DNA of 64,000 bases, taken from NCBI GenBank assembly GCA_964447095.1, contig CAYUSE010000001.1:4576-68575 (forward strand), in the 5' to 3' direction. The notes beneath the pieces were generated by a model. The model was not told the DNA's origin, did not search any database, and saw nothing but the letters and a program-made list of their open reading frames with translations. This document shows, piece after piece, positions 41,480 to 64,000 of this stretch. How positions within the stretch are numbered: the stretch's first letter is position 1; each line of letters begins with the position of its first letter. The DNA is from an uncultured Lachnospiraceae bacterium. Lineage in GTDB: Bacteria; Bacillota; Clostridia; UBA1381. Both the position numbers and the translations under genes were made by a program.

Positions 41480-41948
41480 GATATATCCTCCAATGTATTG
41501 TTTTATATAGAATATTGTATCATATAAAAATAACCATTGCAAGGCTGATATTTGTTAGAATAACGCCGCGTTTATTTATCAGCGCGAAGCATATTTGAAA
41601 CTGAGTTTTTTAGGTTTTTTTACTTAAATCATTGATTTTTTCACAAAAATGTGATAAAATATATTGGTAAATTTATGTAATAATTACAAAAAGTAAGTTA
41701 AGGTCATATAATTTCAGTCAAAATTCTTGTTTCTATTCGGGTAATATTTTAAAGTGCCGGTTGTTTTGTTTGCCGGAATATTTAAGAATATCCGGCGGTT
41801 ATAAACAAATAATTGTAAAAAAATATAAAGGGGGATTTCAATGCTATGGTTTAAAGATGGTTTGTAGATATTATTGTTTAGTTAGAAATGTAAGCATATT
41901 ATTTTTCGAAATGTAATTTATAAATTGGAAGGAGAAAACAAGAGACAA

Positions 41949-44294: not shown

Positions 44295-44316
44295 TATAGA
44301 ATAGGAGATGACAGTA

Positions 44317-45600: not shown

Positions 45601-45613
45601 GGGATATGCTATC

Positions 45614-46900: not shown

Positions 46901-46924
46901 GTTATTATTATATGACAAGTTAAC

Positions 46925-46969
46925 GGCATATTGCATGATTAATTTTAATGCAATATGCCAATTTTTTTT
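46925..46969 (+). terminator. Intrinsic terminator after SLH paralog B
   Basis: The stem GGCATATTGCAT / ATGCAATATGCC has an 11-nt loop and is followed by AATTTTTTTT. Confidence 0.75.
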
Positions 46970-46990
46970 AAATCTCCTCAACGCCCTTGA

Positions 46991-48181: not shown

Positions 48182-48229
48182 TGTTAGAGATTACTTAAAA
48201 TAATAAAATACAGAAAGGATAAAAAGGAT

Positions 48230-48382
48230 ATGTGCAAAAAAGAAAAAGAAATAGAAAATGAAAAAGCTCAGGAGATAAACCTTGAAGATTTAAGTCAAAT
48301 CACGGGTGGCGCCGGCAAAACAACGCGTCCGCCGACAGTTACTATACACAAATATACTGAAACCGTGAAAGAAAAAGCATAA
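48230..48382 (+). CDS. Double-glycine-leader peptide precursor 1 (50 aa)
   Basis: Not in the ORF track because it is under 60 aa. It encodes MCKKEKEIENEKAQEINLEDLSQITGG/AGKTTRPPTVTIHKYTETVKEKA. The leader matches the class II bacteriocin/pheromone GG-leader pattern: hydrophobic at -4, -7 and -12, acidic at -8 and -9, and GG at -2/-1. An AAAGGA...AAGGA purine-rich SD lies upstream. A homolog lies at 62824 and a C39-peptidase ABC exporter lies 2.3 kb downstream. Confidence 0.75.
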   Translation: MCKKEKEIENEKAQEINLEDLSQITGGAGKTTRPPTVTIHKYTETVKEKA

Positions 48383-48391
48383 ATGATTAAG

Positions 48392-48426
48392 AATCCTTTG
48401 CTGTGTATGCAGCAAAGGATTTCTTA
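48392..48426 (+). terminator. Candidate intrinsic terminator after peptide gene 1
   Basis: The stem AATCCTTTGCTG / CAGCAAAGGATT has a 6-nt loop and is followed by TCTT, a weak U-tract. Confidence 0.5.
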
Positions 48427-48494
48427 AAGAAGAATATAGAAGATTAAAAAGAAAATTTTGAATAAGAATATAAAGTTGTTATTGGTAAAATCTA

Positions 48495-48523
48495 TTGAAA
48501 ATTATTTTGATGTAATGTATAAT
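48495..48523 (+). promoter_or_regulatory. Near-consensus sigma-A promoter for the exporter/giant-protein operon
   Basis: TTGAAA (48495-48500), exactly 17 nt of spacer, then TATAAT (48518-48523), ~75 nt upstream of ATG 48598. Confidence 0.55.
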
Positions 48524-48597
48524 ATTTACATAGAAGGGATGCATAGAACTGACATCAGAAAACACTGATAATTTTTCTTGTCTTTTGGAGGAAGGTT

Positions 48598-49740
48598 ATG
48601 AAAAAAATATATATACTTTTAATTTCTGTCTTTATATTATACATACTGTGCGGCTGCGGAGGCAATCCGCTGACACAAACTGTAAAAATTGCCGTTATGG
48701 GAAATCAGGCTGATTTTTATCCCGGCTACAAAGAGGGTATTGAGAGAGCGGTAAATGATTTGAATAAGGAATATGCCGACAGCGGATGTACCGTAGAATA
48801 TGAATTTTACAATGATAACGGAAATTATGAGAAAGGCGCGGCTATTATTGATACACTCGCATCAGATAAAAGTATTACGGCTGTTATCGGAGCAGTGGAT
48901 ATGGATATAAACAAAACCGCCGCTCATGTTTTTAACGAAGCGGAGAAGCTTTTTGTTATTCCGTTTTTTCTCTACGATAGTGTGTATGAGGATAATTATT
49001 ATGATACAGTGTTTTCGTTGTGTAATTCGGCAAAAACGGTCGGAGATATACTGCGCGGCGCGGCGGCGGATACAAAAGCCAAACGTTGGGCGGTATGTGC
49101 GGCAGAAGGTGAGTTTGAACGCACGGAAATGAACGGATTTTTGCAAAACAGTGCGGCAGACGGTATTGCAGTTGTTGACTGTGCGAGTATGTCAATGCTT
49201 GTAAATCAATTTGATGAAGTCTATAAGTATTGGGATATTTTAGGCGTTGAGGGTGTCGTAATGTTTCCCTCAGGCAGTGAGGGCTTTGATATTTTAAAAA
49301 AAATAAAGAAAAAAAATCCCGATATTATTTGTGCGGGAGATACTGCTTTTGACAATAGTGTAGTTATGGATAATGATCCTGAGCTTCTGGCAGCAATGAA
49401 CGGATTTATAATGGCGGACGAATTCATGCTGCGTAATGAAGCTGATGGTGAGAACAGTTTAATTACAGATATGGAAGAAGAATACAAACAGAAAACAGGG
49501 AACGATTTTGACGTATGGTATATCCAGGCATATAATGCCGTGAGAATGATTGCTGATACAGCAATACAGAATCGGGTCTTTAATTCTGCGGATATAGCAA
49601 AGCTTCTGCACGAAAATGATTACAATGGCTTATATCAGCGTTTTAAGTGTGATGAAAAAGGATTGCAGGTCACGGACGTATTTAAATACAGCGTAATGGA
49701 TGAAAGGGGATACTTCGAGGAATATGAATTGAAGGATTAG
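48598..49740 (+). CDS. Orphan lipoprotein with a type-1 periplasmic-binding-protein fold (LivJ/Peripla_BP_6-like)
   Basis: Signal peptide plus lipobox (LYILCGC/GG). KIAVMGNQADFYPGYKEGIERAVNDLNKEY...ITAVIGAVDMDINKTAAHVFNEAEKLFVIP resembles branched-chain-amino-acid-type binding proteins. No cognate permease or ATPase of that type is nearby. Confidence 0.6.
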   Translation: MKKIYILLISVFILYILCGCGGNPLTQTVKIAVMGNQADFYPGYKEGIERAVNDLNKEYADSGCTVEYEFYNDNGNYEKGAAIIDTLASDKSITAVIGAVDMDINKTAAHVFNEAEKLFVIPFFLYDSVYEDNYYDTVFSLCNSAKTVGDILRGAAADTKAKRWAVCAAEGEFERTEMNGFLQNSAADGIAVVDCASMSMLVNQFDEVYKYWDILGVEGVVMFPSGSEGFDILKKIKKKNPDIICAGDTAFDNSVVMDNDPELLAAMNGFIMADEFMLRNEADGENSLITDMEEEYKQKTGNDFDVWYIQAYNAVRMIADTAIQNRVFNSADIAKLLHENDYNGLYQRFKCDEKGLQVTDVFKYSVMDERGYFEEYELKD

Positions 49741-49748
49741 GTGAAAAT

Positions 49749-50630
49749 ATGCAAAATTTATTCAGAAAAGAAGCGCTTGAAAGCTTTTCTTCAAACAACG
49801 GAATTACTAAGGGGATACGCGCGGTAAGCATTAAAGCAGTGATTTTTACGGTTTTGATTGCAGTATGCTCAGCAGCCTTTGCTGTGTGGCTTGTGTTCGG
49901 AACGGTTTATGAAACTGTATCCGTAAGCGGAGTAATATGGCCCGCGGAAAATAACGGCGGCGTGTATGCAAAATCCGGAGGAGTTATAACAAAGACGGTC
50001 GTTGCTTCGGGTGACATTGTGAAAACGGGAGATATTCTCGCCGTAATTCCGCAAGAAGATATTTTAACAAAAATAAAAAATAAAAAAGAGAGCGGCGCTG
50101 CGGACGAGGAGCTTAATACGCTGTATGACGCATACGACAGACTTTCCGTGGCACGCTCGAATATTGATGGAATTGTGACGAATATTGCCAATGAAAATAT
50201 TTGTATAAACAAAGGTGATAAAATAGCAGAGGTTGTGCCGTACAGTGAAGACGGCAATAATAAAATACTGACTGCGTTCATTCCTTCTGACAAAAGCGGT
50301 CTTGTAAAGCTTGGAATGGAAGCTCAGGTAATGCCTGATTTTGCTCCGCGCGAAAAATACGGATATATAAAAGCATATATTTCAGGAATTTCATCTTATT
50401 CTGTTACGGGGCAGAGCATAAAAGACTCAAACAGTGAACTGTTTTTATCAGAGTTTGACGAAAGAGAAAGCTATATACAGCTTGAAATAACACTTGTATC
50501 GGATGCAAATGCTCAGAGCCGGCTGAAATGGTCAAATCCTAACAGCGGAAGTACAGATGTTGCTATGGGAACGGTATGCGGAGCAGACATAGTAATTAAA
50601 AAATGCCGTCCGTATGAATGGTTGTTTTAG
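49749..50630 (+). CDS. HlyD-family membrane-fusion / bacteriocin secretion accessory protein
   Basis: N-terminal FRKEALESFSS followed by a single TM (AVIFTVLIAVCSAAFAVWLVF). Lipoyl-like hairpins are present (GGVITKTVVASGDIVKTGDILAVI and GIVTNIANENICINKGDKIAEVVP). It sits 9 nt upstream of the C39 ABC gene. Confidence 0.7.
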   Translation: MQNLFRKEALESFSSNNGITKGIRAVSIKAVIFTVLIAVCSAAFAVWLVFGTVYETVSVSGVIWPAENNGGVYAKSGGVITKTVVASGDIVKTGDILAVIPQEDILTKIKNKKESGAADEELNTLYDAYDRLSVARSNIDGIVTNIANENICINKGDKIAEVVPYSEDGNNKILTAFIPSDKSGLVKLGMEAQVMPDFAPREKYGYIKAYISGISSYSVTGQSIKDSNSELFLSEFDERESYIQLEITLVSDANAQSRLKWSNPNSGSTDVAMGTVCGADIVIKKCRPYEWLF

Positions 50631-50639
50631 GAGGGCATT

Positions 50640-52781
50640 ATGGAGAAGGTAAAAAAGGTACGTCCCATACTGCAAATGGAAGCGACTGAATGCGGCGCAG
50701 CATCGCTTGCCATGATTTTAGGCTATTACGGCAAGACTGTAACGCTTGAGGAGCTAAGGCGCGAGTGCGGAGTATCGCGAAACGGCGTAAACGCGAAAAG
50801 CATTGTAAACGCGGCGCAGTATCATGATTTAAACCCGAGAGCTTTGCGCGTGAATATTGAAGGTGCGGAAAGAGTAAAAACACCTGCGGTCATACATTGG
50901 AATATGGACCATTTTCTTGTGCTTTGCGGATTTAATAAACGCGGCGCAGTGCTTGCAGATCCGGCATACGGGATTAGGACCGTAAGCATGGAGGAATTTT
51001 CAAAATCTTTTACCGGCATTGTAATAGAGCTTACTCCTGCAGAGAATTTTAAAAAAGATAAGGGAGGAAAAAATGCAAATGATTACATAAGCTTCTGCGT
51101 AAAGAGTTTTTTGCCGAATATATTTTATTTTATACTGCTTGAATTATGCGCAATTATAGGAAGCGGCGCGGTATTGTTTTTAAATTCCGTGTTCATAGAT
51201 AAAATTCTTATCGGTGAGAACACGCAGAATTTAACGATTATACTTAAAACGCTTTTATGCGCAGGATTTATAACAGCGGCGGCAGCTATACTTAATACGA
51301 ATATTAGGCACAGGATAGGCAAACAGCTAAATATGAAGATAAATTCGGGATTTATTGAGCGTATGCTAAGGCTGCCGGTTGAATTTTTTGCGCAGCGAAG
51401 CGAGGGAGATTTGGCAAACTGTCAGAATGCGAATATGCAGATGGGCGCGAAGCTCAGCAGTATGATGTCGCCTGTACCCGGATATATAATGCAGATTATT
51501 ATATATTTTATATTGATTGCCGTATTGGACGCGCATATTGCTTTTATAGGAATATTATGCGCGTCGGCAAATATTTGTGCAATGATAATAAGTTCTCAAA
51601 AATATGAGGAAAAGATGCGTTCCTACAGCCGTGATATGGGCGCTTTGCAGAGCGATATTTCACAAACGATTGATATGATTGAAACAATAAAAGCCTGCGG
51701 CGCTGAAGACGCTGTATTTGCTCGGCTTATGGCGGCGGGTACGCAGACAGTTAACACAAAAACCCAGATTGACAAAACAGGAGTATATACAACCGGTTTG
51801 TTTTCCTTTTTAAATGCTCTCGGCGCAGGCGCTGTGTTAATTGCCGGTATATGGAAGATACTTGCCGGTTCTATGACTATGGGTATTCTGATAGCGGCGC
51901 AGGCTTTTGTCGCGGCAATGCTGGAACCCTTGGGAGATGCAGTAAATGCAGGAATAGAAATGCAGACCTTAAAGGGCGAAACAGCGCGTACAAATGATGT
52001 TATGCACTATAACGAGGATGATAAATTCCTTGATGACAGCATTGAACAGACAAAAGAAATTGACGGAGATATTGAACTGAAAAATATCAGCTTTGGCTAC
52101 AATCCGCTTGACGCACCGCTTATAGAAGGATTTAACCTTGTGATAAAAAAGGGCGGCAGTATTGCGATTACAGGAGCAAGCGGCAGCGGAAAATCCACAG
52201 TTGCAAAAATCATTGCGGGGCTTTACCGTGAGGATAGCGGATGTGTTACCTTTAACGGCACGTTAAGAAAGGAAATAAATCATTATTATTTTTATTCAAA
52301 AACAGCAGTGGTAAGTCAGAATATACGGCTGTTTGACGGTACGGTGCTTGACAATATAACAATGTGGGATGACAGTATTCCTTATGACGAAGTTGTTGCG
52401 GCGGCAAAGGCGGCGTGCATACATGACGATATAATAGGCAGAAGAAACGGCTACCGTGAAATTGTTACGGAAAACGGCAGAAACTTTTCAGGCGGTCAGC
52501 GGCAGCGTATTGAGATAGCGCGCGCTCTCGTAAAAAAACCGTCCGTAATTATAATGGATGAAGCAACAAGCGCGCTTGATGCAGATACTGAGGAAACCGT
52601 TATGAATAATATAAAAGCAATGGGAATTACTCGGATAGTTGTTGCTCACAGACTGTCAACAATTATGGACAGTGATGAAATCATAGTTATGGAAGACGGT
52701 AAAATCTCCGAGCGCGGAACACATGACGAGCTTATGATGAAAAACGGCGCATATTGTGCATTGGTAAGGAGTGTGGGATAG
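50640..52781 (+). CDS. Peptidase-C39-domain ABC exporter (bacteriocin/peptide-cleaving, ATP-binding and permease)
   Basis: The N-terminal C39 domain has the catalytic Cys in LQMEATECGAASLAMILGYYG and His in VIHWNMDHFLVL. A 6-TM domain follows, with Walker A GASGSGKST, signature FSGGQRQR and Walker B VIIMDEATSALD. Confidence 0.9.
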   Translation: MEKVKKVRPILQMEATECGAASLAMILGYYGKTVTLEELRRECGVSRNGVNAKSIVNAAQYHDLNPRALRVNIEGAERVKTPAVIHWNMDHFLVLCGFNKRGAVLADPAYGIRTVSMEEFSKSFTGIVIELTPAENFKKDKGGKNANDYISFCVKSFLPNIFYFILLELCAIIGSGAVLFLNSVFIDKILIGENTQNLTIILKTLLCAGFITAAAAILNTNIRHRIGKQLNMKINSGFIERMLRLPVEFFAQRSEGDLANCQNANMQMGAKLSSMMSPVPGYIMQIIIYFILIAVLDAHIAFIGILCASANICAMIISSQKYEEKMRSYSRDMGALQSDISQTIDMIETIKACGAEDAVFARLMAAGTQTVNTKTQIDKTGVYTTGLFSFLNALGAGAVLIAGIWKILAGSMTMGILIAAQAFVAAMLEPLGDAVNAGIEMQTLKGETARTNDVMHYNEDDKFLDDSIEQTKEIDGDIELKNISFGYNPLDAPLIEGFNLVIKKGGSIAITGASGSGKSTVAKIIAGLYREDSGCVTFNGTLRKEINHYYFYSKTAVVSQNIRLFDGTVLDNITMWDDSIPYDEVVAAAKAACIHDDIIGRRNGYREIVTENGRNFSGGQRQRIEIARALVKKPSVIIMDEATSALDADTEETVMNNIKAMGITRIVVAHRLSTIMDSDEIIVMEDGKISERGTHDELMMKNGAYCALVRSVG

Positions 52782-54915
52782 CGTGCATACAAAATTAAGA
52801 GAAGAAAACGAGAAAATACAAGAAAAAAACTATAAAGCATCAGCACGCGCATACGAAAATATGAATGCGGCGCTTATTGGTGAAACTGACCTTGACGGGG
52901 TTAATGCAGTCCTGAAATTTTTAAATATAAAGGAGCGCGTTGACGGCAGTCTTTCGACTTCGGAGCAGCTTAAATTTATAGAAGAAAAGTTTTTTATTAA
53001 GATGAGATACGTGGAGCTTGACGAGGATTGGTATATAACGGCGGCAGTTCCGATGCTTGTAAAAACTGATGAAGGACGCTGGCTTGCTGTGATACCAAGG
53101 GCTGACGGAACATGCTGCTGTATAGATAACGGCAGAAAAATAAAGGTAACGCATAAAAATGCAGGACTGTTTACAAACAGTGCAATGTATTTTTATAAGG
53201 TAATGAAAAGCGATAAAATCACAATGCGGGATTTGTTTTCGTTTATGGTGAAATGCATATCGAAAAAAGGCATGATTGCCGTTCTTGCCGCGTCAGTGTT
53301 TACAGCTTTTGCGGGAATGCTTGTGCCGTGGGCGAACAGCTTTATATTTTCAAGGATAATTCCCGCAGGTGAAATATCGGGAATAGCGGCAGCGGCTGCG
53401 CTGATACTTTCTTCTGTGCTTGCCGCGGCAATACTCGGACTTTTGCAGTCGCTTATTCTTACCAACTCAATGCTTAGGACGGATACATACATTCAGAGCG
53501 CAGTATTTTCCCGTGTTTTGTCGCTGAGGACAGAGTTTTTTAAGACTGCAAAGTCAGGCGAGCTGTCACGAATGATAACAGAATTTTCCGATATAACAAA
53601 AATTGTATCCGTAAGAGGCATAAGCGCGAGTATCAGCATAGCGCTGTCGCTGGTATATCTTATACAGATTTATATATATGCTCCGGAACTGTTCGGAGTG
53701 GTTATATTATTTTCCGTTCTGCTCTGTGTAATGATGATTGCGGAGAGTGTGCTGAGTTCAAAATGGATGAGAAAATATTCTTCTTCGCTGTCGAAGATGT
53801 CAGGCTTTTGTTACGAGCTGTTTTCAGGCATTGAGCAGATAAAGCTGAACGGCGCGGAGGCAAGAATGATGCGCCGGTGGAGCGAGCGTTATCTTGATGC
53901 GTCGCTAAATGAGGATAAGCCGTTTTTGCTAAAATATTCGGATGTATTTTATAAGCTGATAAGGTTATTTACAACTGCCGTTATATTTCTGCTCGGCATG
54001 CGGCTGACTGCTTCGGACTATATTGCATTTTCATCGGCGTATGGAGCATATACCTCGGCAAGTGTAGGAGCAGCGGTTATTATACAAATGATTGCGGGTT
54101 TCCGTTCTGCATATTCGCTTATAAAGCCTGTACTTTATGCGGAATGTGAGGAATACGGCTCTGAAAAAAAGAAGCCTGAAAGGCTGAACGGCGAAATTAC
54201 GGTATCAGATTTGCATTTCCGCTACGATAAAGACTCGCCCTATGTTTTAAACGGTCTGTCAGTACATATACGCGCAGGTGAAAGCGTGGGAATAATAGGT
54301 ACATCAGGATGCGGAAAATCAACATTGATAAGATTACTGCTTGGCTTTGAGAAAGCAGAGAAGGGCAGCATCTACATAGATGGCTTTGACCTGAGGGAGC
54401 TTGATTTAAAAAGCTGCCGTCAGAAAATCGGAGCCGTTCTCCAGAATACAGGGCTAATATCGGGAGATATTTATTCAAATATCACGATAACGAAGCCGGC
54501 TGCAAGTATGGAAGAGGTGGCGGAGGCTGTGGAAACGGCAGGGTTAACCGACACTATAGCCGCTCTGCCTATGGGTTTGCATACACCTGTAAGTCAGGAA
54601 AACTGTACTCTTTCGGGAGGACAGCGGCAGAGAGTGCTTATTGCAAGAGCGATTATCGCTAAACCGTCAATTCTAATTTTTGACGAAGCGACCTCAGCGC
54701 TTGACAATATCACTCAGGCGAAAATAACGGAAGGTGTAAACAAGCTTGATTGTACAAAAATTATTGTTGCGCATAGATTGTCTACAATCGAGAGCTGTGA
54801 CAGGATTTTAGTTATGGATAAGGGGGTGATTGTGCAGGAAGGAACATGGGCTGAGCTGAAAAAAACTGATGGATTATTTAAACAGCTTGAAAAAGCAAAT
54901 TATCAGTTAAAATAA
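52771..54915 (+). CDS. Second ABC exporter (permease plus ATPase) lacking a peptidase domain
   Basis: The ~150-aa N-terminal region has no C39 Cys/His motifs. A TM domain follows, with Walker A GTSGCGKST, signature LSGGQRQR and Walker B ILIFDEATSALD. The GTG at 52771 overlaps the upstream gene; the in-frame GTG at 52783, 1 nt after the upstream stop, is better spaced from AAGGAG. Confidence 0.85.
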   Translation: MWDSVHTKLREENEKIQEKNYKASARAYENMNAALIGETDLDGVNAVLKFLNIKERVDGSLSTSEQLKFIEEKFFIKMRYVELDEDWYITAAVPMLVKTDEGRWLAVIPRADGTCCCIDNGRKIKVTHKNAGLFTNSAMYFYKVMKSDKITMRDLFSFMVKCISKKGMIAVLAASVFTAFAGMLVPWANSFIFSRIIPAGEISGIAAAAALILSSVLAAAILGLLQSLILTNSMLRTDTYIQSAVFSRVLSLRTEFFKTAKSGELSRMITEFSDITKIVSVRGISASISIALSLVYLIQIYIYAPELFGVVILFSVLLCVMMIAESVLSSKWMRKYSSSLSKMSGFCYELFSGIEQIKLNGAEARMMRRWSERYLDASLNEDKPFLLKYSDVFYKLIRLFTTAVIFLLGMRLTASDYIAFSSAYGAYTSASVGAAVIIQMIAGFRSAYSLIKPVLYAECEEYGSEKKKPERLNGEITVSDLHFRYDKDSPYVLNGLSVHIRAGESVGIIGTSGCGKSTLIRLLLGFEKAEKGSIYIDGFDLRELDLKSCRQKIGAVLQNTGLISGDIYSNITITKPAASMEEVAEAVETAGLTDTIAALPMGLHTPVSQENCTLSGGQRQRVLIARAIIAKPSILIFDEATSALDNITQAKITEGVNKLDCTKIIVAHRLSTIESCDRILVMDKGVIVQEGTWAELKKTDGLFKQLEKANYQLK

Positions 54916-54935
54916 AAAAGAGGAGGAAAAGCAAT

Positions 54936-57900
54936 ATGCAAAAAAGGTTGAAAAGGTTGTTGAGCGGCTTGCTTGCGGTAAGTATGCTCGCATCCGTTGC
55001 TCCCGCTGCGCTTGCCAAAGAGCAGGCTGTAAGCGGAGCATCAGAAATTTCATTTTCGGCGGCAAAATATAATGTGTCGGAAAATGATGGAAAAATTAAA
55101 ATAAAAATCGTCCGTAAAGGCGGAAATGACCGTTCTGTTGAGGTCGCATTCAAAACCGCAGACTTTACAGCGGAGTACGGTATGGATTATATCGTTTTTG
55201 ATGAGGACGGAAACGAATTGCCTATGGCAGACGGTATTACGCCTAGCGAGAGCGAGTTCATTGAAACGAGAGGCAAGAGTGTTTTAAGCGAAACGGATAA
55301 GGAAGAGTCCGAAATTGATAACCTTGAGCCGACAGAAGAACCGGAAAAAGACCAGCCCTCAACTGTTATCGGTGAGAATGGCACGGTTGAAGAAATTGCC
55401 GCTCCCGTTGACACGGCAGAACAGGCGGAAACGAAAAAAGCTTCCACAGGCTCCGCACTTTTGGACGCGCAGGCAGAATATTTAAATCTGCCTGCTGAGA
55501 ATGATAATACAAGTGCGGCGGTTGAAAATATTCTTACCGATGTAAATAAATATTTTCAGGAAGCGCAGGGCGCTGTCGGAGTAGTTGCTTTCGAGGAGGG
55601 TGAAACAGAAAAAGAAGTTACAATCAAGCTTATCGACAACGATATTCCTCAATCGGATAAAATTGTTTTGCTGTCGCTTATGGGAGTAAACGGCGATGAA
55701 GAAACTTCGCTTGCCGCAAATCCCACATCATATATAAATATTATGGATGATGAAGAGTACGAAACTCCGATTATTGAGCCTGATACAAATGAAATCACGC
55801 TGTCGGAGGATAATCCCGGCTATGAACTTATTCTTTCAAGAACAAGCGGAGTGGATTACTATACCTCCGTTCTTGTTTCAACAGTCAAGGGTACCGCGCA
55901 GGAAGGATATAACTATGATAAAATTGAAAACTCGAGCGTGTCATTTGCGCCGGGCGAGAAAGAAAAGAAGGTTAAAATTTCAGCGGAAAATTTCGGAGAT
56001 GAAATGAGCTTTGGCATACGCCTTGAAAGCGACGGAACGTGTGAGATTTCAGATGAATACATAACTGTTACAATGTCGGCAAAGCCGTCGGAGAACAGTG
56101 ATGCTCCGTCGGATGCAAATTCATTGCAAAACGGTGATGTTTCACTTATGTTGGCAGAAGATAATGCGCGTTTGGGAAGCGTTATCGGAACAAGTACAAC
56201 AACTAAAAGACTTGATGATTTTAATTTTGTACACGGTCCGAGTACGGGAAAACAGGACGGTTATCACCGAACATCATGGAACAGCAGCTCAAGCTGGACA
56301 GATTATTATGTATATGAAACATACAAGAAAAGCGGCAGAACATGGGTAGCGGAAAATGCGCTGAATGTGAGCGGCGTTGACAAGATAAATTTATGGCATC
56401 AGAATGACGGAGACTATAACGGACGCTGGGCAGCGTATCATATATTTATTGAGCTGCTCAGAAGCTGGGATAGAAATAATTATTCCTCCGGCGGAGACAA
56501 AAATATCCGCAAGGACGGAAGACACGGCTGGACGAGCGATGATATGGATGTATCAAGTCTTAATGGCGAGTATTACCTGCGTTTCGGTGTCAGAAACGAC
56601 GGCTATGCTTCGGATAACGGCAGAGCGTGGCTCGGCAATCCGGTAACGCTTACATGGCATCAATACAATCTGAACATTCAGAATAAGCAGGTATTTAACC
56701 GTCTTTCATACGATTACGCCGACAAAACCGGCGAGGCGCTGAAAATTGCGTACACTGACGGCAAGGACGATTATGACTATATTCCGTCTGTAAAAATTGT
56801 GAATAACAGCGGCAATGAAATAAGCGGCTTTTATGCAAATGCAAATCAAACCATAAAGCCCATTTCAAACAATCCGAGCCTGGACACAAAATACGGAATA
56901 GAGCTTGAGGGCGTATATCTTTATACAAAGGATAATGACAGTCTTTATAAAAAAGACAGAACATATCCTTATGCAGACCATTGGTATGAAGACAATACTA
57001 TCTGGGTACCTGCAAGCGGTGTGAAGGCAGATCAAAGTCTTGCGGAGAAACTTACCTCAAAGTTTGGCAGTAAATCAATAAAGGTTATGCCTAAGTTCAG
57101 GCAAAAAACCGTTACACTTAATATACATAATACGGACAACGAAAAAACATATATTGCCAATATGAACAGCAAAAGCGCGGAAAGCTATCGTGACTGGGGC
57201 GCTAATGGATATTATAATCAATATACATTCCCGATATATTCGCAAATTAAGGTACGCGCAGTTGCAGCAAAGGGCAAGACGGTTACAGGCTTTAATATTG
57301 ACCTTTGGTCACAGCCGACAGACAAAGACCCGATTTATTCCGACAGCAGCGCGCCGGAGAGAATGACGTATACTCTGACGGAGAATATGAGTTTTTATCC
57401 GAGAACGGAAAATCAGGGAATGAATGCGGCATATATGCCGGGGGCGGATAAAGTAATAAATGATTTGTCGGGTCGTGTATTTACCCAACCGTCTGCGGGA
57501 GAAAGCGGCAGCGATATTAAATATTCGGATTTAAACGGAAACCTTAATATTCAGACTGTTTATCCCGGTATGCTTTGGACAATGCGCGCAACGGCTCCGG
57601 ACGGATATTATGTAAAATGGACAAACGGAACGGGAGATATTAAGAACGTAAACGGAAAAATTGATGTAAGCTCAGACCCGAATATCAATGAAGAAACGGA
57701 AAACACCAAAAAGTTTAAAAACCTGTACACTCCTGTTTACGGCGATATTATGTCAGGAACAATAGTGCAGAACAATACAAAGTATTACTATGAGTTTGTA
57801 AAGAACGGAAATGAAAACGGCAAAGTACAGGGAAAGGTATTGCGCGAAAAAGGCAGCTTTTACGATGTGGTTTGCAATAAGAATCTGCAATTAGCGCCGG

Positions 57901-60900
57901 CTGCGGCAATACAGGTCAGCGTCGCGGGAACAGCAGGCTTTACAGATGAAAACGGCGATTTTGTTATAGAGCTTAAAAATGTACCGACATCGGGACATGT
58001 AAGCGTAATCGTTGACGATAACGGTACAATGTACCCAACAACGGCGCTTGCAAATTATATGTCAATAACACTTCCTGCGTATGAATGCTTTAAGCCGAAA
58101 TCACTCAGCGTTCGATATAATGATGCTTCGGCAAATAAAATAAACGGAACGGTTGTCAATATTAAAAACGATACCTTAAATATTGTTTCTCAGGCAGAGA
58201 GTAACGGTTCACTTCAGCCGACAGGAGCGAAATATTACATACATAAGGTGAACGGAACGGTAATTGACTGTTCAGCAGATAACAGATTTACAAACAGCTT
58301 TGCAAACGGCACGGCATCAATATCATTCAATCCGAAGTCAGTTATGGACGCAGGAGATAAAATATATGTAGCGTTTATCGACCAAAATGATAAGGAATAT
58401 AAGTCGATGGACATAGGCTACGACTTTGTTGCGCCGCTGAATTTGAGAACGTTTATGTTCCCGCTTATAGGAAGCTCGTTGTTAGACAATACATACAGCA
58501 GCGCTGTAGAGCTTATAGGCGACCCTCTCGGTGATGTGTCGCTCGGTAAGCTCGGCTTTGATGAACCGGAAACAGAAATGGTTACTCCCGATGGTATGGA
58601 CCCCGAAAAATACAGCTATGCAATGTCTACATACAAATTCGGTGATTTCAGCAAAGCAATTAAGACCTTCTCATCAAAAGACAACAAGGACAATAAAGAT
58701 GATAATAATGATGAGAATGATAAAGGGACAAAGAGCGAAGAAACAGCAAAGGATATAAAGAATGCCGTAAAAGACAACGGAAAAGAAACGGAAAACGGCG
58801 GTTATAAGACAAACAAATCTTTCGCGTGGGAGTTTTCGCCGAAGGCTGCCTTTGCAATGCAAATTACAACGCGTAAGGACGGCAATTCATACAAGTATTA
58901 TTTTGAAGAGCTTGATTTCCTCGTAGGTCTTGATTACAAAGTGGACGGCAAAATAACAGTTACCCTGCCGATAGGTATGAATATTATTATTACAGGTACG
59001 CTGTCGGGAGATGTTGCAGGCATATTCCAGCTGAAAACAAACTACACGGGCGATTCGACATGGAATAATAATAAGGTTGAATACACTGCGGAGAGCTTCG
59101 GCTTATTTGAGGAAATAGACCATGTTGACAGAAAAGCATATCTTATGGTTAACCCGAATATTTCTCTCGGACTTGGAGTTGAATGGGCAATTATAGAAGT
59201 CGGAGGAAACGCCAATTTCAAATTCGATATGGATTTTGAATTTGGATTAAACGCAGGCTCTTTAGGGCATCGGATGTATGGAGATATGACATATAATTTT
59301 GATTATTATATCAAGGTATTGTCTATAAAGGTTTATTCCGGTAAAACGAAAGACCGCACGGCAGAGCTTTTCTCCGAAAATGCGGACGGACATATTGAGC
59401 CCGATATAATTGCGGGACTTATGAGCATTGAAGGTAATGAAATTCAATCCATACCGACAACAAGAGATTACCTTAACAATACCTCCGGCTGGAACGGAAC
59501 CGACAGCAATATGTCGCTGTTTAATATAGACACGGATAATACAGAAGAATTAGATCTTATAAGAGGCGCTTATCCAAGCACGAAATCAACGCTGACACCG
59601 TTTGGAGACGGCAAAATACTGTTGACGTTTATCGATGATGACATATATAGAAGTGAAATAAACAGGACAGCCTTGTGTTATTCAATCTATAACGGTGAAA
59701 CATGGTTATATCCTCATCAGATTGACGATGACGGTACATTGGACGATTATCCGAATGTATTTGACTTAGGAGATAAAATCATGATATCGTGGTCGTCCGC
59801 AGACAAAGTATTTAATGACAACGCTACCGCGGTGCAGGCTTTAACGGCTCTTGACATAAAGACAGTATTCTTTGATAAAGAAACAGAAACCTTTAGTGAG
59901 GTTATGCAGCTTACACATACGACAGATGAGGATTATACGGCGGATGTACAGCCGAGGGCGGCGTATGACAGTGAAACAGGCAGAATTATTCTGTACTACA
60001 CAAAGACAGAATATACCGAAGCTCAAAATCTTACTGATTTGATAGACGCGCCGTCAGTTATCGCATATCGTTTCTATGAGAACGGCAAATGGAACGATGA
60101 ATCAAGCTATACCGAGGAAGAATTGTCAGATATGACAACAGAGGAAAAAGAAGCGTATAAAACAAACTGGTACGGTCAGCGTTTCCTTGACACAAGACTT
60201 AACAAGACAAGCGCAGATATGTTAAGAATTGTTGACTCGGACGCAATTTCCTACAACGGACTTGCGCTTTACGCATGGACGGTTGACTATGACAAGAACT
60301 TGAATACGGTAGACGACAGAGATGTATTTATGCAAATATATAACTTCTCAGAAAACAGTTTTACTCACATTATAAAAATAACTTCGGATTCGGGAGCATA
60401 TTCAATGCCGCATTTCGGCAGATATAATGATGAAACATATCTGTTCTATTCTGCGATGGGCGCCTTGGACGGAAGTGAAAACGAGGAACAGAGCGGCATC
60501 GCATATCTTGATGTAAGCGATATTATAAAGAACGGCAAATATACTAAGGTAAGTGAGAATAATACTGAGTATTACAAGCTGGAATACACAACTATGGCTG
60601 CCGCATCGACAGACCAAGACGGCAATGAAATTCCGGCGCACAATGAAACAGTTCAAATTCAGCCCTCATACGCAGTAACGGTTGACGGCTACATAAATAA
60701 CTACTGTGTAGATGTTGACAGTGATGAAAAAATGTATCTGACATGGACAAATTCCGATGAAAATGGTTCAAGACAGATATATACCTCAATTTTTGATATT
60801 GCTCCTATGGCAGGCGCAGAAGCAGACGAGGACGGCTCAATAAGCAAGAACTATGAATGGAGTGAGGCATTTAAGCTGACCAATGCGGAAAATACAGCAT

Positions 60901-62822
60901 ACGGAAACATTGACTCAGCAGTCACAAACGGCAAACTCTATACTACTTCAATTAAAATGCCATATACAGAAAATAAGAGTCTTAATGAATCGAGGGCAGA
61001 CTTTGTACTGATTGAACATACACCCTATGGAAGACCGGTAACGGTTGAGGAAAATGCATTGATAGCTGATACAAAGTATATTTATCCGGATACAGGATTT
61101 ACGCTCACATCAACAATTAAAAACGAGGGAACAAAGCTTATCGACAAGCCTGTGACATTTAAGTTTACAATGACCTCAAACGGAAAAACAACCGAAATCG
61201 GTGAACAGACCATAGAAACCGCATGGGGTGCAGGAAAAACTATGAGCGCCTCTGTAAATGTACCCGGTATTGAAGAAATCAGTGACGATTTGACATTTAA
61301 TACTGAGATTACGGTTGATGATACGGTTATCAATCAGGAAATGAAAGCCGTTAAAGAATACAGTGTTGTCACCGACGGCGATGCGGCTCTTGATGAGATT
61401 GCCGGCGGTCACAGACTGCATATTCCTCTCAGGAATGAGGGCAATATATCGTCAGCGCCTGTCAGCGTTAAACTCTATACCGCAAAAGACAGCGAAACTG
61501 ACGAGCTTATAGATGAATATACAATAGAGTCAATCGGCACAAATTCGTCTGCTGCCGTTGATGAAACTGTTGAAATTCCCGACAGCGCTTATGCTATAGA
61601 AAACGGTGACGGTATCGCTGATATTATAGCGGTAATTGAAGCTGACGGCAAGGAGCTTGGAAGGCTTGAAACAAAGGCGCATAAATCATTTGACGCAAAA
61701 GCAATCGAAACAATGAATAAGGTTACTGACGTATCAATCAAGGGAAGCAATAAGATTTCCGCAAAATATCTTGATGATATTGAAATTGAAACACAGATTA
61801 GAGGTACGGCAGGTGAAGATGTTACTGTTATGTGGGTAAGCGATAATAATGATATTGTTTATGTAAGAGATGATAATACTTTGTTTGCATCAGGCGGCGG
61901 CACAGCAACGCTTACAGGTTATGTTATTCCGTCAGTTCAGAACATAAAGTTTAGTTATGACGGTACTTCTGAAAAAGCCAAAGTGCTTGATACAATTCCG
62001 TCAACGCTTTATAAGACCGTCACAGCGGAAGTAACAGTAGATAAGGACGAAGAGCCTACAGCCTCTCCGACAACAGAGCCTACAGCTTCTCCGACAGCAG
62101 AGCCTATAGCTTCTCCGACAACAAAACCTACAGCTTCTCCGACATCAAGACCAAATCGCGGCGGAGGCGGAGGAGGTTCATCAGTAAAGTCAACGCCGAA
62201 ACCAACGTCAACGGCTCAACCGCAGGAAACATCAGCTCCGCAGAATACAACAGAGCCTGCAGCAGAAAATGCAATGTTTGACGATACCGCAAACCATTGG
62301 GCAAAGGATTATATTGACAGACTTGCAGCGGACGATATTGTAAACGGTGTGGTTAACAGAATATTTAATCCGAACGGCAATATCACAAGAGCGCAGTTTG
62401 CGCAGATTTTGATGAATACAGGACTTGTTGAAGAAGGAAATATTGATGTTCCGGCATTTACTGATGTTGATGGTGACGCATGGTATAATGAGGCTGTAGT
62501 CTGGGCAGTATCCTGCGGTGTTGCGAAAGGCATGAGCAATGAAATATTTGAGCCTGAAGGTCTGATAACAAGAGAACAGATGGCAGTGATGGTAAATCGA
62601 TTTATCAAGCTTGCAGGCATAGAGGCAGAAGACGGCGAAGCGGTAAGCTTTACCGATTCGGATAATATATCCTATTGGGCAATAGCTGATGTTGAAGCGC
62701 TTGCTGCAAAAGGAATACTGAAGGGACGGGATACAGGAGACTTTGACCCGTTGGCAAATATGACTCGTGCCGAAGGTGTGGTTGTTATATGCAATATTTT
62801 AGATGCAAAGGAGGCAAAATAA
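54936..62822 (+). CDS. Giant (2628-aa) SLH-anchored surface protein: Calx-beta-like x2, large unassigned central region, CARDB-like x2, Big_2-like, Pro/Thr linker, SLH x3
   Basis: Sec signal peptide (LLAVSMLASVAPAALAKE). The Calx-beta pattern is AFKTADFTAEYGMDYIVF ... VVAFEEGETEKEVTIKLIDNDIPQSD ... INIMDDEE. CARDB-like segments start at YIYPDTGFTLTSTIKNEG... and HRLHIPLRNEGNISSAP.... The Big_2-like segment is VTVMWVSDNNDIVYV...GGGTATLTGYVIP. The C-terminal SLH repeats are FDDTANHWAKDYIDRLAADDIVNG, FTDVDGDAWYNEAVVWAVSCGVAKG and FTDSDNISYWAIADVEALAAKGILKG. Confidence 0.85.
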   Translation: MQKRLKRLLSGLLAVSMLASVAPAALAKEQAVSGASEISFSAAKYNVSENDGKIKIKIVRKGGNDRSVEVAFKTADFTAEYGMDYIVFDEDGNELPMADGITPSESEFIETRGKSVLSETDKEESEIDNLEPTEEPEKDQPSTVIGENGTVEEIAAPVDTAEQAETKKASTGSALLDAQAEYLNLPAENDNTSAAVENILTDVNKYFQEAQGAVGVVAFEEGETEKEVTIKLIDNDIPQSDKIVLLSLMGVNGDEETSLAANPTSYINIMDDEEYETPIIEPDTNEITLSEDNPGYELILSRTSGVDYYTSVLVSTVKGTAQEGYNYDKIENSSVSFAPGEKEKKVKISAENFGDEMSFGIRLESDGTCEISDEYITVTMSAKPSENSDAPSDANSLQNGDVSLMLAEDNARLGSVIGTSTTTKRLDDFNFVHGPSTGKQDGYHRTSWNSSSSWTDYYVYETYKKSGRTWVAENALNVSGVDKINLWHQNDGDYNGRWAAYHIFIELLRSWDRNNYSSGGDKNIRKDGRHGWTSDDMDVSSLNGEYYLRFGVRNDGYASDNGRAWLGNPVTLTWHQYNLNIQNKQVFNRLSYDYADKTGEALKIAYTDGKDDYDYIPSVKIVNNSGNEISGFYANANQTIKPISNNPSLDTKYGIELEGVYLYTKDNDSLYKKDRTYPYADHWYEDNTIWVPASGVKADQSLAEKLTSKFGSKSIKVMPKFRQKTVTLNIHNTDNEKTYIANMNSKSAESYRDWGANGYYNQYTFPIYSQIKVRAVAAKGKTVTGFNIDLWSQPTDKDPIYSDSSAPERMTYTLTENMSFYPRTENQGMNAAYMPGADKVINDLSGRVFTQPSAGESGSDIKYSDLNGNLNIQTVYPGMLWTMRATAPDGYYVKWTNGTGDIKNVNGKIDVSSDPNINEETENTKKFKNLYTPVYGDIMSGTIVQNNTKYYYEFVKNGNENGKVQGKVLREKGSFYDVVCNKNLQLAPAAAIQVSVAGTAGFTDENGDFVIELKNVPTSGHVSVIVDDNGTMYPTTALANYMSITLPAYECFKPKSLSVRYNDASANKINGTVVNIKNDTLNIVSQAESNGSLQPTGAKYYIHKVNGTVIDCSADNRFTNSFANGTASISFNPKSVMDAGDKIYVAFIDQNDKEYKSMDIGYDFVAPLNLRTFMFPLIGSSLLDNTYSSAVELIGDPLGDVSLGKLGFDEPETEMVTPDGMDPEKYSYAMSTYKFGDFSKAIKTFSSKDNKDNKDDNNDENDKGTKSEETAKDIKNAVKDNGKETENGGYKTNKSFAWEFSPKAAFAMQITTRKDGNSYKYYFEELDFLVGLDYKVDGKITVTLPIGMNIIITGTLSGDVAGIFQLKTNYTGDSTWNNNKVEYTAESFGLFEEIDHVDRKAYLMVNPNISLGLGVEWAIIEVGGNANFKFDMDFEFGLNAGSLGHRMYGDMTYNFDYYIKVLSIKVYSGKTKDRTAELFSENADGHIEPDIIAGLMSIEGNEIQSIPTTRDYLNNTSGWNGTDSNMSLFNIDTDNTEELDLIRGAYPSTKSTLTPFGDGKILLTFIDDDIYRSEINRTALCYSIYNGETWLYPHQIDDDGTLDDYPNVFDLGDKIMISWSSADKVFNDNATAVQALTALDIKTVFFDKETETFSEVMQLTHTTDEDYTADVQPRAAYDSETGRIILYYTKTEYTEAQNLTDLIDAPSVIAYRFYENGKWNDESSYTEEELSDMTTEEKEAYKTNWYGQRFLDTRLNKTSADMLRIVDSDAISYNGLALYAWTVDYDKNLNTVDDRDVFMQIYNFSENSFTHIIKITSDSGAYSMPHFGRYNDETYLFYSAMGALDGSENEEQSGIAYLDVSDIIKNGKYTKVSENNTEYYKLEYTTMAAASTDQDGNEIPAHNETVQIQPSYAVTVDGYINNYCVDVDSDEKMYLTWTNSDENGSRQIYTSIFDIAPMAGAEADEDGSISKNYEWSEAFKLTNAENTAYGNIDSAVTNGKLYTTSIKMPYTENKSLNESRADFVLIEHTPYGRPVTVEENALIADTKYIYPDTGFTLTSTIKNEGTKLIDKPVTFKFTMTSNGKTTEIGEQTIETAWGAGKTMSASVNVPGIEEISDDLTFNTEITVDDTVINQEMKAVKEYSVVTDGDAALDEIAGGHRLHIPLRNEGNISSAPVSVKLYTAKDSETDELIDEYTIESIGTNSSAAVDETVEIPDSAYAIENGDGIADIIAVIEADGKELGRLETKAHKSFDAKAIETMNKVTDVSIKGSNKISAKYLDDIEIETQIRGTAGEDVTVMWVSDNNDIVYVRDDNTLFASGGGTATLTGYVIPSVQNIKFSYDGTSEKAKVLDTIPSTLYKTVTAEVTVDKDEEPTASPTTEPTASPTAEPIASPTTKPTASPTSRPNRGGGGGGSSVKSTPKPTSTAQPQETSAPQNTTEPAAENAMFDDTANHWAKDYIDRLAADDIVNGVVNRIFNPNGNITRAQFAQILMNTGLVEEGNIDVPAFTDVDGDAWYNEAVVWAVSCGVAKGMSNEIFEPEGLITREQMAVMVNRFIKLAGIEAEDGEAVSFTDSDNISYWAIADVEALAAKGILKGRDTGDFDPLANMTRAEGVVVICNILDAKEAK
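62052..62147 (+). repeat. 24-nt x 4 in-frame tandem repeat encoding the (E/K)P(T/I)ASPT(T/A/S) linker
   Basis: The four units are GAGCCTACAGCCTCTCCGACAACA, GAGCCTACAGCTTCTCCGACAGCA, GAGCCTATAGCTTCTCCGACAACA and AAACCTACAGCTTCTCCGACATCA. They lie inside the giant CDS just before a Gly run and the SLH domains. Confidence 0.9.
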
Positions 62823-62823
62823 T

Positions 62824-62979
62824 ATGTCAGACGAAAAAAAGACAACTGTGAAAAACGATGAAATCACTGAACAGGAAATTAGTCTTGACGAATTGGATAA
62901 TGTGACAGGCGGTTCGATTGGCAATGTAAAATATACAAAGACAGTCGATATCAGCGGTGATACCAAAAGAAAAGCATAA
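62824..62979 (+). CDS. Double-glycine-leader peptide precursor 2 (51 aa)
   Basis: Not in the ORF track. It encodes MSDEKKTTVKNDEITEQEISLDELDNVTGG/SIGNVKYTKTVDISGDTKRKA. A perfect SD AAGGAGG (62808-62814) lies inside the end of the giant gene, and the ATG sits 1 nt after its stop. The leader and the core motifs (KYT-x-TV, C-terminal K-x-KA) are homologous to the 48230 peptide. Confidence 0.75.
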   Translation: MSDEKKTTVKNDEITEQEISLDELDNVTGGSIGNVKYTKTVDISGDTKRKA

Positions 62980-63052
62980 ACACAGATAAGATTAAAAAGA
63001 GAACCGTCGTTTCGTGGCGGCTTCCAAATTTGACAAAAATAAAACAGAAAGA

Positions 63053-63098
63053 AGGCTGTATCAATGATAAAAGCGTTGATACAGCCTAAATTTTTTTT
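63053..63098 (+). terminator. Intrinsic terminator closing the exporter/giant-protein/peptide operon
   Basis: The stem AGGCTGTATCAA / TTGATACAGCCT has an 11-nt loop and is followed by AAATTTTTTTT. Confidence 0.8.
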
Positions 63099-63220
63099 CG
63101 CATAAAAATTGCCGTTTATTATTGAAAAAATATATTTATGTTAAAAACTGTATTATTCAAATATTGCTATATTGTAAAATATATGATAGAATAAGAACAT
63201 CAAAAATATAGGAGTAAATT

Positions 63221-64000
63221 ATGAAGAGAACTCAATTTTCGCCAAATAATGCTTTATATATTGAGCATATAAAAAACACAGAGAAGTTTAATATGCCCAT
63301 ACAGCATTATCATGATGCTTATGAAATATATTTACAGCTTGACGGCAAGAGATATGCGTTTTACGATAATATATGGTACACTCTGAAGTGCGGAGATATG
63401 GCGATATTCAAGCCGTTTGACATTCATTTTTTTGAGAGCAAAGAATCCGACTATTATGAAAGGTACGGCTTGAATTTTCAGTTAGACTGTTTTTCAAATA
63501 TATTGAGCAATGAAGAAAAATATTTGCTGACGGAGAAATTGAATTCCTGCATAATTCATCTGTCGGAGGAGCAAACTAAAGTCTTGTACGATCATTTTAA
63601 ACGTGTGGATTATCTCTCAAAACGGACAGGGTTTCTTTCGGAAAAACTGACGCATTCGGCCCTTCTGTTATTGGTTGCCTATGTGACAGAATGCATAGAT
63701 AATAGGGTGGTAACTGAGGGGCATACCGTCGCGCCGCAAATTATATCGGCATTAAAATATATAAATAAGCACTATAAGGAAAATATATCGCTTGACGATA
63801 TAGCAAAAACGGCGCATATAAGTAAATTTTATTTTTGCAGAAAGTTTCATTCTACCACAGGCGCGACAGTTCTTGAATATCTGAACAATGTGCGGCTTAC
63901 GAAGGTACACAACCTGCTGCTCAGCACAACAATGACTATTGATGAAATTGCAGCAATAACGGGATTTTCGTCGGCGGTAAATCTTACAAGAGCATTTAAA
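63221..64000 (+). CDS. AraC-family transcriptional regulator (cupin-like N-terminus, HTH C-terminus); 3' end runs off the window
   Basis: Not in the ORF track because there is no stop in the window. It encodes MKRTQFSPNNALYIEHIKNTEKFNMPIQHYHDAYEIYLQLDGKRYAFYDN... in the N-terminal half. The C-terminal half carries ISLDDIAKTAHISKFYFCRKFHSTTGATVLEYLNNVRLTKVHNLL...IDEIAAITGFSSAVNLTRAF. SD TAGGAG. Confidence 0.8.
   Translation, partial: MKRTQFSPNNALYIEHIKNTEKFNMPIQHYHDAYEIYLQLDGKRYAFYDNIWYTLKCGDMAIFKPFDIHFFESKESDYYERYGLNFQLDCFSNILSNEEKYLLTEKLNSCIIHLSEEQTKVLYDHFKRVDYLSKRTGFLSEKLTHSALLLLVAYVTECIDNRVVTEGHTVAPQIISALKYINKHYKENISLDDIAKTAHISKFYFCRKFHSTTGATVLEYLNNVRLTKVHNLLLSTTMTIDEIAAITGFSSAVNLTRAFK

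Follow-up and report, generated by a model that had tools for sequence, protein, structure and literature searches.

Why should the gene for a peptide of 51 amino acids (aa) begin one nucleotide (nt) beyond the stop codon of the gene for a surface protein of 2,628 aa? The question is raised by a 64,000-nt stretch of contig CAYUSE010000001.1 from an uncultured Lachnospiraceae bacterium (hereafter the window), which encodes two small peptides with double-glycine (GG) leaders, the second of which (peptide 2) lies at the 3' end of a giant gene. An earlier annotation made from the letters alone (the sequence-only reading) had proposed that peptide 2 is translationally coupled to the giant gene, that it is a paralogue of peptide 1 and that its tie to a wall-anchored protein is unusual. 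We found that the physical link is kept in every comparable locus, and that peptide and giant change class together. The peptide is probably processed and exported by the neighbouring transporter and works with its cognate giant at the cell surface.

A double-glycine peptide gene adjoins the giant gene

The gene order is peptide 1, lipoprotein, HlyD-like protein, ATP-binding cassette (ABC) transporter with a C39 peptidase domain, second ABC transporter, giant, peptide 2. The features at the junction of the last two genes are as follows.

54936-62822, + strand: giant surface-protein gene, 2,628 aa, with Sec signal peptide (aa 1-27), N-terminal Calx-beta, PT linker and three SLH domains
62808-62814, + strand: Shine-Dalgarno (SD) sequence AAGGAGG of peptide 2, within the giant's last codons (K-E), 9 nt ahead of the ATG
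62824-62979, + strand: peptide 2 precursor gene, 51 aa (open reading frame (ORF) translation, family profile match, purifying selection)
62824-62913, + strand: peptide 2 leader, 30 aa, ending in ...LDELDNVTGG
62914-62976, + strand: peptide 2 core, 21 aa, with the stop codon at 62977-62979
63053-63097, + strand: intrinsic terminator, a 14-bp stem then a T run, 74 nt past the peptide 2 stop, closing the operon

Translation of 62824-62979 gives the leader MSDEKKTTVKNDEITEQEISLDELDNVTGG and the core SIGNVKYTKTVDISGDTKRKA. The giant ORF (54936-62822) ends with TAA at 62820-62822, followed by a single T at 62823 and the peptide 2 ATG at 62824-62826 (...GCA AAG GAG GCA AAA TAA T ATG TCA GAC...). The 1-nt spacing and the AAGGAGG inside the giant's last codons, both described in the sequence-only reading, were thus confirmed in the sequence; the 64-kb window has a single AAGGAGG-N9-ATG, with 0.11 occurrences expected. 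A mechanical ORF list opens the frame at an in-frame ATG further upstream (62803), which was rejected as the start of peptide 2. We take 62824 as the start because the upstream ATG has no SD and is not conserved, and because stop codons two codons upstream of the ATG matching 62824 block an upstream start in two related loci (L005 and L016).

An AraC-family gene lies beyond the terminator, downstream of peptide 2, and no Rfam family was found in 47800-64000. A promoter-like site (62314-62341, TTGACA-16-TATTGT, 10/12) lies about 480 nt ahead of peptide 2, within the part of the giant gene that encodes the SLH end, and as a consensus match alone it could be a source of giant-independent peptide 2 transcription.

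A widespread family of hydrophilic peptides

The features that define a double-glycine leader are present in peptide 2, which carries I-12, L-10, E-8, L-7 and V-4 before a terminal TGG, in line with the consensus of hydrophobic residues at -4/-7/-10/-12, acidic residues at -8/-9/-13, and glycine at -2 and -1. These positions are near-invariant among 113 family leaders (V-4 in 111, L-7 in 110, G-1 and G-2 in all 113). The mature peptide would be a 21-mer with a calculated monoisotopic mass of 2280.2438 Da, an isoelectric point of 9.8, a net charge of +3 and a grand average of hydropathy (GRAVY) of -0.82.

An exact-sequence look-up of peptide 2 gave no match, and a homologue search with the single sequence returned one 98% identical cluster only. 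The family was instead recovered through the loci of relatives, collected by the second ABC transporter, and then by alignment-based search. The transporter scan, with one genome per species, gave about 20 related loci with 56-84% identity from gut Clostridia, under the labels Hominilimicola, Ornithomonoglobus, Alangreenwoodia and uncultured Clostridia. A homologous GG peptide was found in every locus holding the 3' end of a giant gene, by a regular expression and then a small hidden Markov model in six frames. A search with the alignment of 12 locus peptides yielded 191 clusters at 90% identity, and a 93-sequence profile run against 1.84 billion representatives yielded 312 representatives at 50% identity (E<=0.001); peptide 2 matches the family profile at E=2e-19. 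Every name given by the source for the 191 clusters is "hypothetical protein", and none of them has a Pfam domain. NCBIfam held no family for peptide 1 or peptide 2 at E<=0.01, and the sole leader-like Pfam match of peptide 2, to type-A lantibiotics, was sub-threshold (17.7 vs 21.7 bits).

Cores are 20-24 aa long with rare exceptions, and conservation runs along all 21 residues. The 105 distinct cores contain no Cys and no Trp, with a mean GRAVY of -0.86 and a mean net charge of +0.4. They fall into two main classes that share one core frame, class A (S-[IL]-x-[ND]-V-x-[YF]-T-x-T-x-[DE]-I-S-x-D-T-[KR]-x-K-I) and class B ((G)-A-F-x-[ND]-V-P-R-V-P-x-x-x-I-D-D-x-L-[KR]-x-K-I). One family member (P0128, 85 aa) apparently holds two cores in one ORF, with a core, a new leader ending in TGG and a second core. 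In the four genes that align without gaps, the proportion of synonymous differences in the core (pS) was 0.6-1.1 against 0.08-0.28 for nonsynonymous differences (pN), with synonymous sites at or near saturation in most pairs. The gene is protein-coding and under purifying selection; with its 30-aa leader and the 191 clusters, the claim of a genuine second GG-leader peptide gene holds.

Giant and peptide genes behave as one module

The peptide gene lies directly 3' of a Calx-beta giant gene, on the same strand, in 20 of 20 distinct loci (the window, L004-L008, L011, L012, L014, L016, L021, L082, L084, L086, L088-L090 and L092-L094). The giants are about 2,000-2,760 aa long and mostly also carry SLH domains, except in L089, where the upstream gene is split (595 + 464 aa). 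The physical tie of peptide 2 to the giant's 3' end is therefore general, and the link survives the comparison of homologous junctions.

Giant identity is 34-68% within class A, 55-63% within class B and about 21% between classes, and giant class matches peptide class exactly. The lipoprotein, the HlyD-like protein and both ABC proteins instead share a common species-like pattern that does not follow peptide class. Two Ornithomonoglobus loci illustrate this. Between L011 (class B) and L016 (class A) these four proteins are 88, 92, 77 and 81% identical, whereas the giants are 24% identical; on the left the two loci stay syntenic until the second ABC gene ends, within the giant the similarity breaks off, and the right flanks are different. 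The pair is inverted as a unit relative to the export cassette in L008 and L012 and occurs without an adjoining cassette in L084, L088 and L093, while L010 has the cassette with neither giant nor peptide within 10 kb. Giant and peptide behave as one swappable module, since their classes match while the cassette follows species phylogeny. The earlier claim of an unusual tie between peptide expression and the giant gene is strengthened by these comparisons.

Several loci depart from the simple layout. Two tandem peptide genes with identical cores (9688-9846 and 10001-10159) follow one giant in L082, from a genome labelled Butyricicoccus. Giants are often split or shortened beside an intact peptide gene, as in L085 (613-5282, 817 + 717 aa vs 2,743 aa in L084), L089 (1126-4310, 595 + 464 aa) and L012 (12346-18417, 2,023 aa), which may reflect real decay, phase variation or assembly errors. 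In the sole long spacer (L014, 20115-20214, 100 nt) an inverted repeat, GTGGAATT...AATTCCAC, is part of a longer GGAGTG/CACTCC stem that could be an attenuator or a processing hairpin. In distant loci a paralogue of Lgt (prolipoprotein diacylglyceryl transferase) and a single-module non-ribosomal peptide synthetase (NRPS; C-A-PCP, with or without TE) flank the pair (L084 1-1669, L088 1-1880, L092 1262-2011 and 10247-13966). An AgrC/ComD-type histidine kinase (HATPase_c_5) and a LytTR response regulator adjoin the module in L092 (1-1082), the one locus of the 20 with a pheromone-type sensor.

Peptide 1 has lost its own giant

The window's other GG peptide gene lies on the far side of the export cassette, behind remnants of a first giant gene.

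48230-48382, + strand: peptide 1 precursor gene, 50 aa, core AGKTTRPPTVTIHKYTETVKEKA (calculated monoisotopic mass 2555.4071 Da); same leader superfamily, different core class
41925-44294, + strand: 789-aa ORF that opens with the giant 1 N-terminus (~335 aa, 93% identical to giant 1 of contig L090) and continues as unrelated sequence
47102-48181, + strand: 359-aa ORF with 98.7% identity to aa 2057-2451 of the L090 protein, the C-terminus of giant 1

Contig L090 is from the same species (99.2-99.7% DNA identity to the window where aligned), and there peptide 1 stands 48 nt behind an intact 2,451-aa Calx-beta giant, followed by the cassette and the second giant. Comparison of window 41925-48181 with L090 1964-9319 found only residues 1-335 (41949-42947) and 2057-2451 (46994-48178) of giant 1 left in the window; unrelated sequence has taken the place of the middle and contains two paralogous SLH genes (44308-45600 and 45572-46900). 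Each peptide in the window thus belongs to its own giant gene, and peptide 1 is left there as an orphan partner.

The sequence-only reading called the two peptides paralogues on the strength of shared motifs. They are related through the leader (BLASTP E=2e-5, with the alignment restricted to leader residues 17-43), but KYT(E/K)TV does not line up between the two cores (positions 6-11 of 21 vs 14-19 of 23). Peptides 1 and 2 form one leader superfamily with cores of different classes.

The giant protein and its central propeller

In the giant of the window about 2,000 residues without annotation precede the SLH domains at about aa 2444-2620. The length given in the sequence-only reading was correct; the protein is anchored through its three SLH domains, however, and not by a sortase motif. 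Pfam searches with four 500-aa slices of the middle gave only a sub-threshold PT-repeat match at the linker end (24.4 vs 26.2 bits), and a PDB sequence search with the giant matched Calx-beta, SLH and PT-repeat sequences only.

Only three parts of the giant are conserved across classes, namely the Calx-beta N-terminus, the SLH C-terminus and a central segment (about aa 1490-2000). This segment is about 30% identical between giant classes and is the sole non-generic region common to all. Its fold was modelled as the following feature.

59523-60950, + strand: central beta-propeller of the giant, about aa 1530-2005 (AlphaFold2 model, Foldseek matches)

The AlphaFold2 model, from a shallow 8-sequence alignment, is all-beta (predicted local distance difference test 74, predicted template modelling score 0.78), and a homologue search with the propeller segment returned 7 fragments only. 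Foldseek relates the model to CylK and to many sialidase propellers (E about 1e-8, template modelling (TM) score 0.35-0.47, ~10% identity), and an Asp-box-like motif, S-I-Y-[ND]-G-x-x-W, is present. The segment is predicted to be a beta-propeller; the Foldseek matches are generic, and no enzyme identity could be assigned from them.

The export cassette predicts cleavage and export of peptide 2

Four genes and a candidate promoter precede the giant.

48495-48523, + strand: promoter-like site TTGAAA-17-TATAAT, 11/12, upstream of the lipoprotein gene; candidate operon promoter by consensus match only
48598-49740, + strand: Peripla_BP_6 lipoprotein (Pfam), first gene of the conserved cassette, its position kept in relatives
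49749-50630, + strand: HlyD-like accessory protein, best match TIGR03794 (119.5 bits vs cut-off 156.2)
50640-52781, + strand: ABC transporter with N-terminal C39 peptidase domain, best match TIGR03796 (756.9 bits vs cut-off 853.3)
52771-54915, + strand: second ABC transporter, no peptidase domain, best match TIGR03797 (582.1 bits vs cut-off 709.4)

The product of 50640-52781 matches PF03412 (Peptidase_C39, E=1.2e-34) in addition to ABC_membrane and ABC_tran, and inspection of the translation shows the Gln, Cys, His and Asp of the catalytic motif. No Pfam family matched the N-terminal 160 aa of the second transporter. The first transporter is the predicted leader peptidase and exporter of peptide 2, and we predict with high confidence that the precursor is cleaved after Gly30 and the 21-mer exported by the adjoining cassette.

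The Peripla_BP_6 lipoprotein (LivJ/ANF-receptor type) opens the cassette in the window, L004-L021, L090 and L092. Binding proteins of this type usually serve importers or sensors, and their presence in an export cassette is odd. A Lachnospiraceae contig (L024, 2791-3117) encodes a GG peptide whose core is long, rich in Cys and of another kind, beside a related cassette, whose second ABC transporter is 35% identical to that of the window. Such cassettes in other Clostridia thus adjoin other types of GG-leader peptide.

Translational coupling is plausible but not general

The distance from the giant stop codon to the peptide ATG varies among the 20 loci.

-11 nt: L004
-8 nt: L007, L094
-1 nt: L084
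+1 nt: window, L005, L006, L016
+14 to +48 nt: eleven loci
+100 nt: L014

Spacing is thus +1 nt or less in 8 of 20 loci and 14-100 nt in the other 12. L005, L006 and L016 share the +1 geometry, and there too the penultimate Lys-Glu codons of the giant supply the AAGGAGG. The giants of these loci show only 38-68% identity to that of the window, and the geometry has evidently been maintained within this lineage. Across the family, adjacency and orientation are conserved and the coupling geometry is not.

The SD of peptide 2 is strong, well spaced (9 nt) and not buried in structure, and the junction RNA has no significant structure (minimum free energy -10.6 kcal/mol, z=0.72 vs shuffled sequence). 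Independent initiation on the same mRNA is, by these features, as possible as termination-reinitiation. Of the proposed translational coupling, then, the 1-nt geometry stands, and obligatory coupling is not established, given the strong SD, the unstructured junction and the 12 longer spacers. Strict coupling is plausible, though neither needed nor conserved family-wide; co-transcription would be the conserved feature and coupling a lineage-specific refinement.

A proposed partnership between peptide and giant

In the mechanism that we propose, peptide 2 would be the last cistron of a ~14.5-kb operon that runs through lipoprotein, HlyD-like protein, C39-ABC, second ABC and giant SLH protein and is closed by the terminator. 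Ribosomes ending the giant ORF would halt 1 nt short of the peptide ATG, with AAGGAGG 9 nt upstream of it, so that peptide synthesis would be tied to the giant mRNA, and re-initiation would probably raise it. The C39 domain of the first ABC transporter would recognise the 30-aa leader and cut after Gly30, and the hydrophilic 21-aa core would be exported after leader removal. The giant would exit separately by Sec and bind the wall via its SLH domains. Outside the cell, the peptide would act with its own giant, either as its cognate ligand or as a small subunit; for the likeliest contact and binding site our guess is the conserved beta-propeller.

We give this whole explanation, a C39-processed, exported peptide working with its cognate giant, a probability of roughly 0.55. 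A physical or functional partnership at the cell surface can be proposed with moderate confidence because linkage is universal, the classes co-vary, the hydrophilic 21-mer is conserved over its whole length and the peptide is encoded by the last, low-expression cistron. Cores that lack Cys and Trp, are hydrophilic and are conserved over their full length would fit a protein-binding peptide better than a membrane-active one.

Several observations weigh against a partnership of this kind. With an unstructured junction and a strong SD, translation of the peptide need not depend on the giant ORF. The tandem peptide genes of L082 argue against a strict 1:1 stoichiometry. The peptide gene is kept where the giant is broken (giant 1 of the window, L085, L089), hence the peptide may be useful without an intact giant, or these loci may be decaying or misassembled. 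Co-variation of neighbouring genes can come from linkage alone, and the kinase/LytTR neighbours of L092 resemble the layout of a pheromone system.

A more specific version, which we hold only tentatively, is that the 21-aa peptide, encoded in trans, is specific to its class of giant and docks into this partner once both have been exported separately, and that such pairs are interchangeable surface modules differing between close gut Clostridia. Possible contacts include the Asp-box propeller, via the C-terminal K-x-K-I, or a Ca2+-bridged acidic I-[SD]-x-D motif, and the conserved N/D at position 4 could conceivably form a covalent Asn/Asp-Lys link. If this version is true, matched giant-peptide pairs could serve self-recognition, adhesion control, or phage/immune evasion.

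Alternative explanations

Double-glycine peptides are usually taken as bacteriocins, pheromones or precursors of ribosomally synthesised, post-translationally modified peptides (RiPPs), all of which fit this locus less well than a partnership with the cognate giant. A diffusible ComC/BlpC-type pheromone would leave the cell through the C39 transporter, either a membrane kinase or the conserved lipoprotein would sense it, and its level would report expression of the surface operon. The canonical GG leader, the dedicated C39 transporter and a short, hydrophilic, predictedly unmodified peptide all suit this role, and the discrete peptide classes among close relatives resemble pherotypes. The regulators that could complete such a circuit are harder to find, as the AgrC/ComD-like kinase and LytTR pair adjoins the module in 1 of 20 loci only and is absent from the window, where the AraC-family regulator downstream is set off by a strong terminator and is not conserved in this position. 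Moreover, the cores are highly conserved across genera and not strain-specific, the lipoprotein tracks species and not peptide class, and class switching together with the giant is left unexplained. We consider a pheromone unlikely.

Alternatively, the association could be historical hitch-hiking, with the peptide a cassette substrate at the operon end, the giant sitting in a variable region between, and no functional tie. Intergenic distances are indeed ordinary for operons, and the downstream flank is also variable between close relatives. However, giant and peptide stay joined when inverted (L008, L012) or far from the cassette (L084, L088, L093), peptide 1 too follows a giant, on the cassette's other side, and the pairing outlasts divergence to ~21% giant identity, which makes hitch-hiking improbable.

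An unmodified class II bacteriocin against competitors is more improbable still. A GG leader, an ABC-C39 transporter and an HlyD-like protein make up the classical class II export set, and the mature peptide of the window is basic, yet a net charge of +3 there shrinks to a mean of +0.4 in the family, the core is hydrophilic in the window as in the family, and there is no amphipathic or hydrophobic segment. A small membrane immunity gene is not a conserved neighbour in relatives, and in the window the peptide is followed by the terminator and the AraC-family gene; the last place after a 7.9-kb ORF is a poor layout for a highly expressed toxin, and strong cross-genus conservation is atypical of one.

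Least probable is a RiPP precursor modified by an unrecognised enzyme, possibly a giant domain or the NRPS/Lgt genes that adjoin the module in L084, L088 and L092, for although the transporter trio comes nearest to the RiPP export cassette of NHLP/Nif11 type (PMC2887384) and whole-length core conservation is typical of RiPP cores, the conserved gene set holds no radical SAM, LanM/LanBC, YcaO or other known RiPP enzyme, 0 of 105 cores have Cys, the leader is of the short class II type and not NHLP or Nif11, and a Sec-exported giant would meet the peptide only after leader removal.

Significance and other features of the window

The carriers, relatives of Monoglobus, Hominilimicola, Ornithomonoglobus and Butyricicoccus, are gut Clostridia that are abundant but poorly represented in culture. 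Should the peptide be the giant's partner, this would be a new use of C39-ABC transporters, supplying a small extracellular subunit or ligand to a Sec-exported surface protein, and would explain a swappable, strain-variable surface module of gut commensals. Annotation gains a rule (a giant Calx-beta gene, then a ~50-aa GG peptide gene), and experimentalists gain a defined 2.28-kDa peptide target.

At the left edge of the surface-protein region lie a 113-aa phage-integrase fragment (38179-38520) and an oppositely oriented GH43/CBM/Big_2 gene (38693-41542, minus strand), which hint at an island boundary. Further upstream, 2762-24330 encodes a sugar ABC importer (SBP_bac_1 and two permeases) and then very large secreted proteins (CBM9, Big_5, DUF4886, and an SLH protein of 1,421 aa), and is probably a glycan-utilisation locus.

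Comparison with known systems

The junction resembles translationally coupled operon pairs in its 1-nt TAA-ATG spacing and in the SD inside the upstream ORF; three other species have this geometry too, and in four more loci the genes overlap by 1-11 nt. It differs from them in that the SD is strong and not sequestered and that 12 of 20 loci have spacers of 14-100 nt. As a coupled subunit pair, a 2,628-aa Sec substrate and a 51-aa ABC substrate would also be an unusual combination.

Peptide binding by Asp-box beta-propellers is known from the Vps10 domain of sortilin, which binds neurotensin, and offers a lead for the proposed contact. By that description, the giant's propeller with its Asp-box-like S-x-x-D-G-x-x-W and the peptides' conserved C-terminal K-x-K-I are comparable, whereas the Foldseek matches of the giant propeller are generic (TM 0.35-0.47, about 10% identity).

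The three-gene NHLP/Nif11 export cassette (TIGR03794, TIGR03796 and TIGR03797; Haft et al. 2010, PMC2887384) provides the best NCBIfam match for each of the three transport proteins, and likewise pairs one peptidase-bearing with one peptidase-less ABC protein. However, all three proteins score below the curated cut-offs here, no leader of TIGR03793/TIGR03798 type was matched, the leader being only 30 aa long, and an extra Peripla_BP_6 lipoprotein heads the cassette. Thiazole/oxazole-modified microcin (TOMM), cyclodehydratase/dehydrogenase, LanM or lanthionine enzymes were absent from the scanned window genes and from the conserved neighbours in relatives. The cassette is thus closest to the NHLP/Nif11 export trio and not a member of it.

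Processing and export of peptide 2 most likely work as in the double-glycine systems of ComC/ComAB and of class II bacteriocins of LcnC/LcnD type. Shared with these are the 30-aa leader with hydrophobic -12/-7/-4, acidic -8 and GG, the adjoining ABC transporter with N-terminal C39, and the HlyD-like accessory protein. Unlike theirs, the core here is hydrophilic, Cys-free and conserved across genera, no immunity gene is present, the kinase/LytTR pair is missing in 19 of 20 loci, and the precursor gene always follows a giant gene, switching class with it. A literature search (double-glycine with SLH/Calx-beta, peptidase-containing ABC transporter with S-layer/surface protein, and the core motifs) returned no description of such a pairing; a paper on a hypervariable Ig-protein module of Thermococcales proved unrelated. 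Processing and export are of a known kind; the new variation on it is that a GG peptide and a giant SLH/Calx-beta/propeller protein are paired obligately and by matching class.

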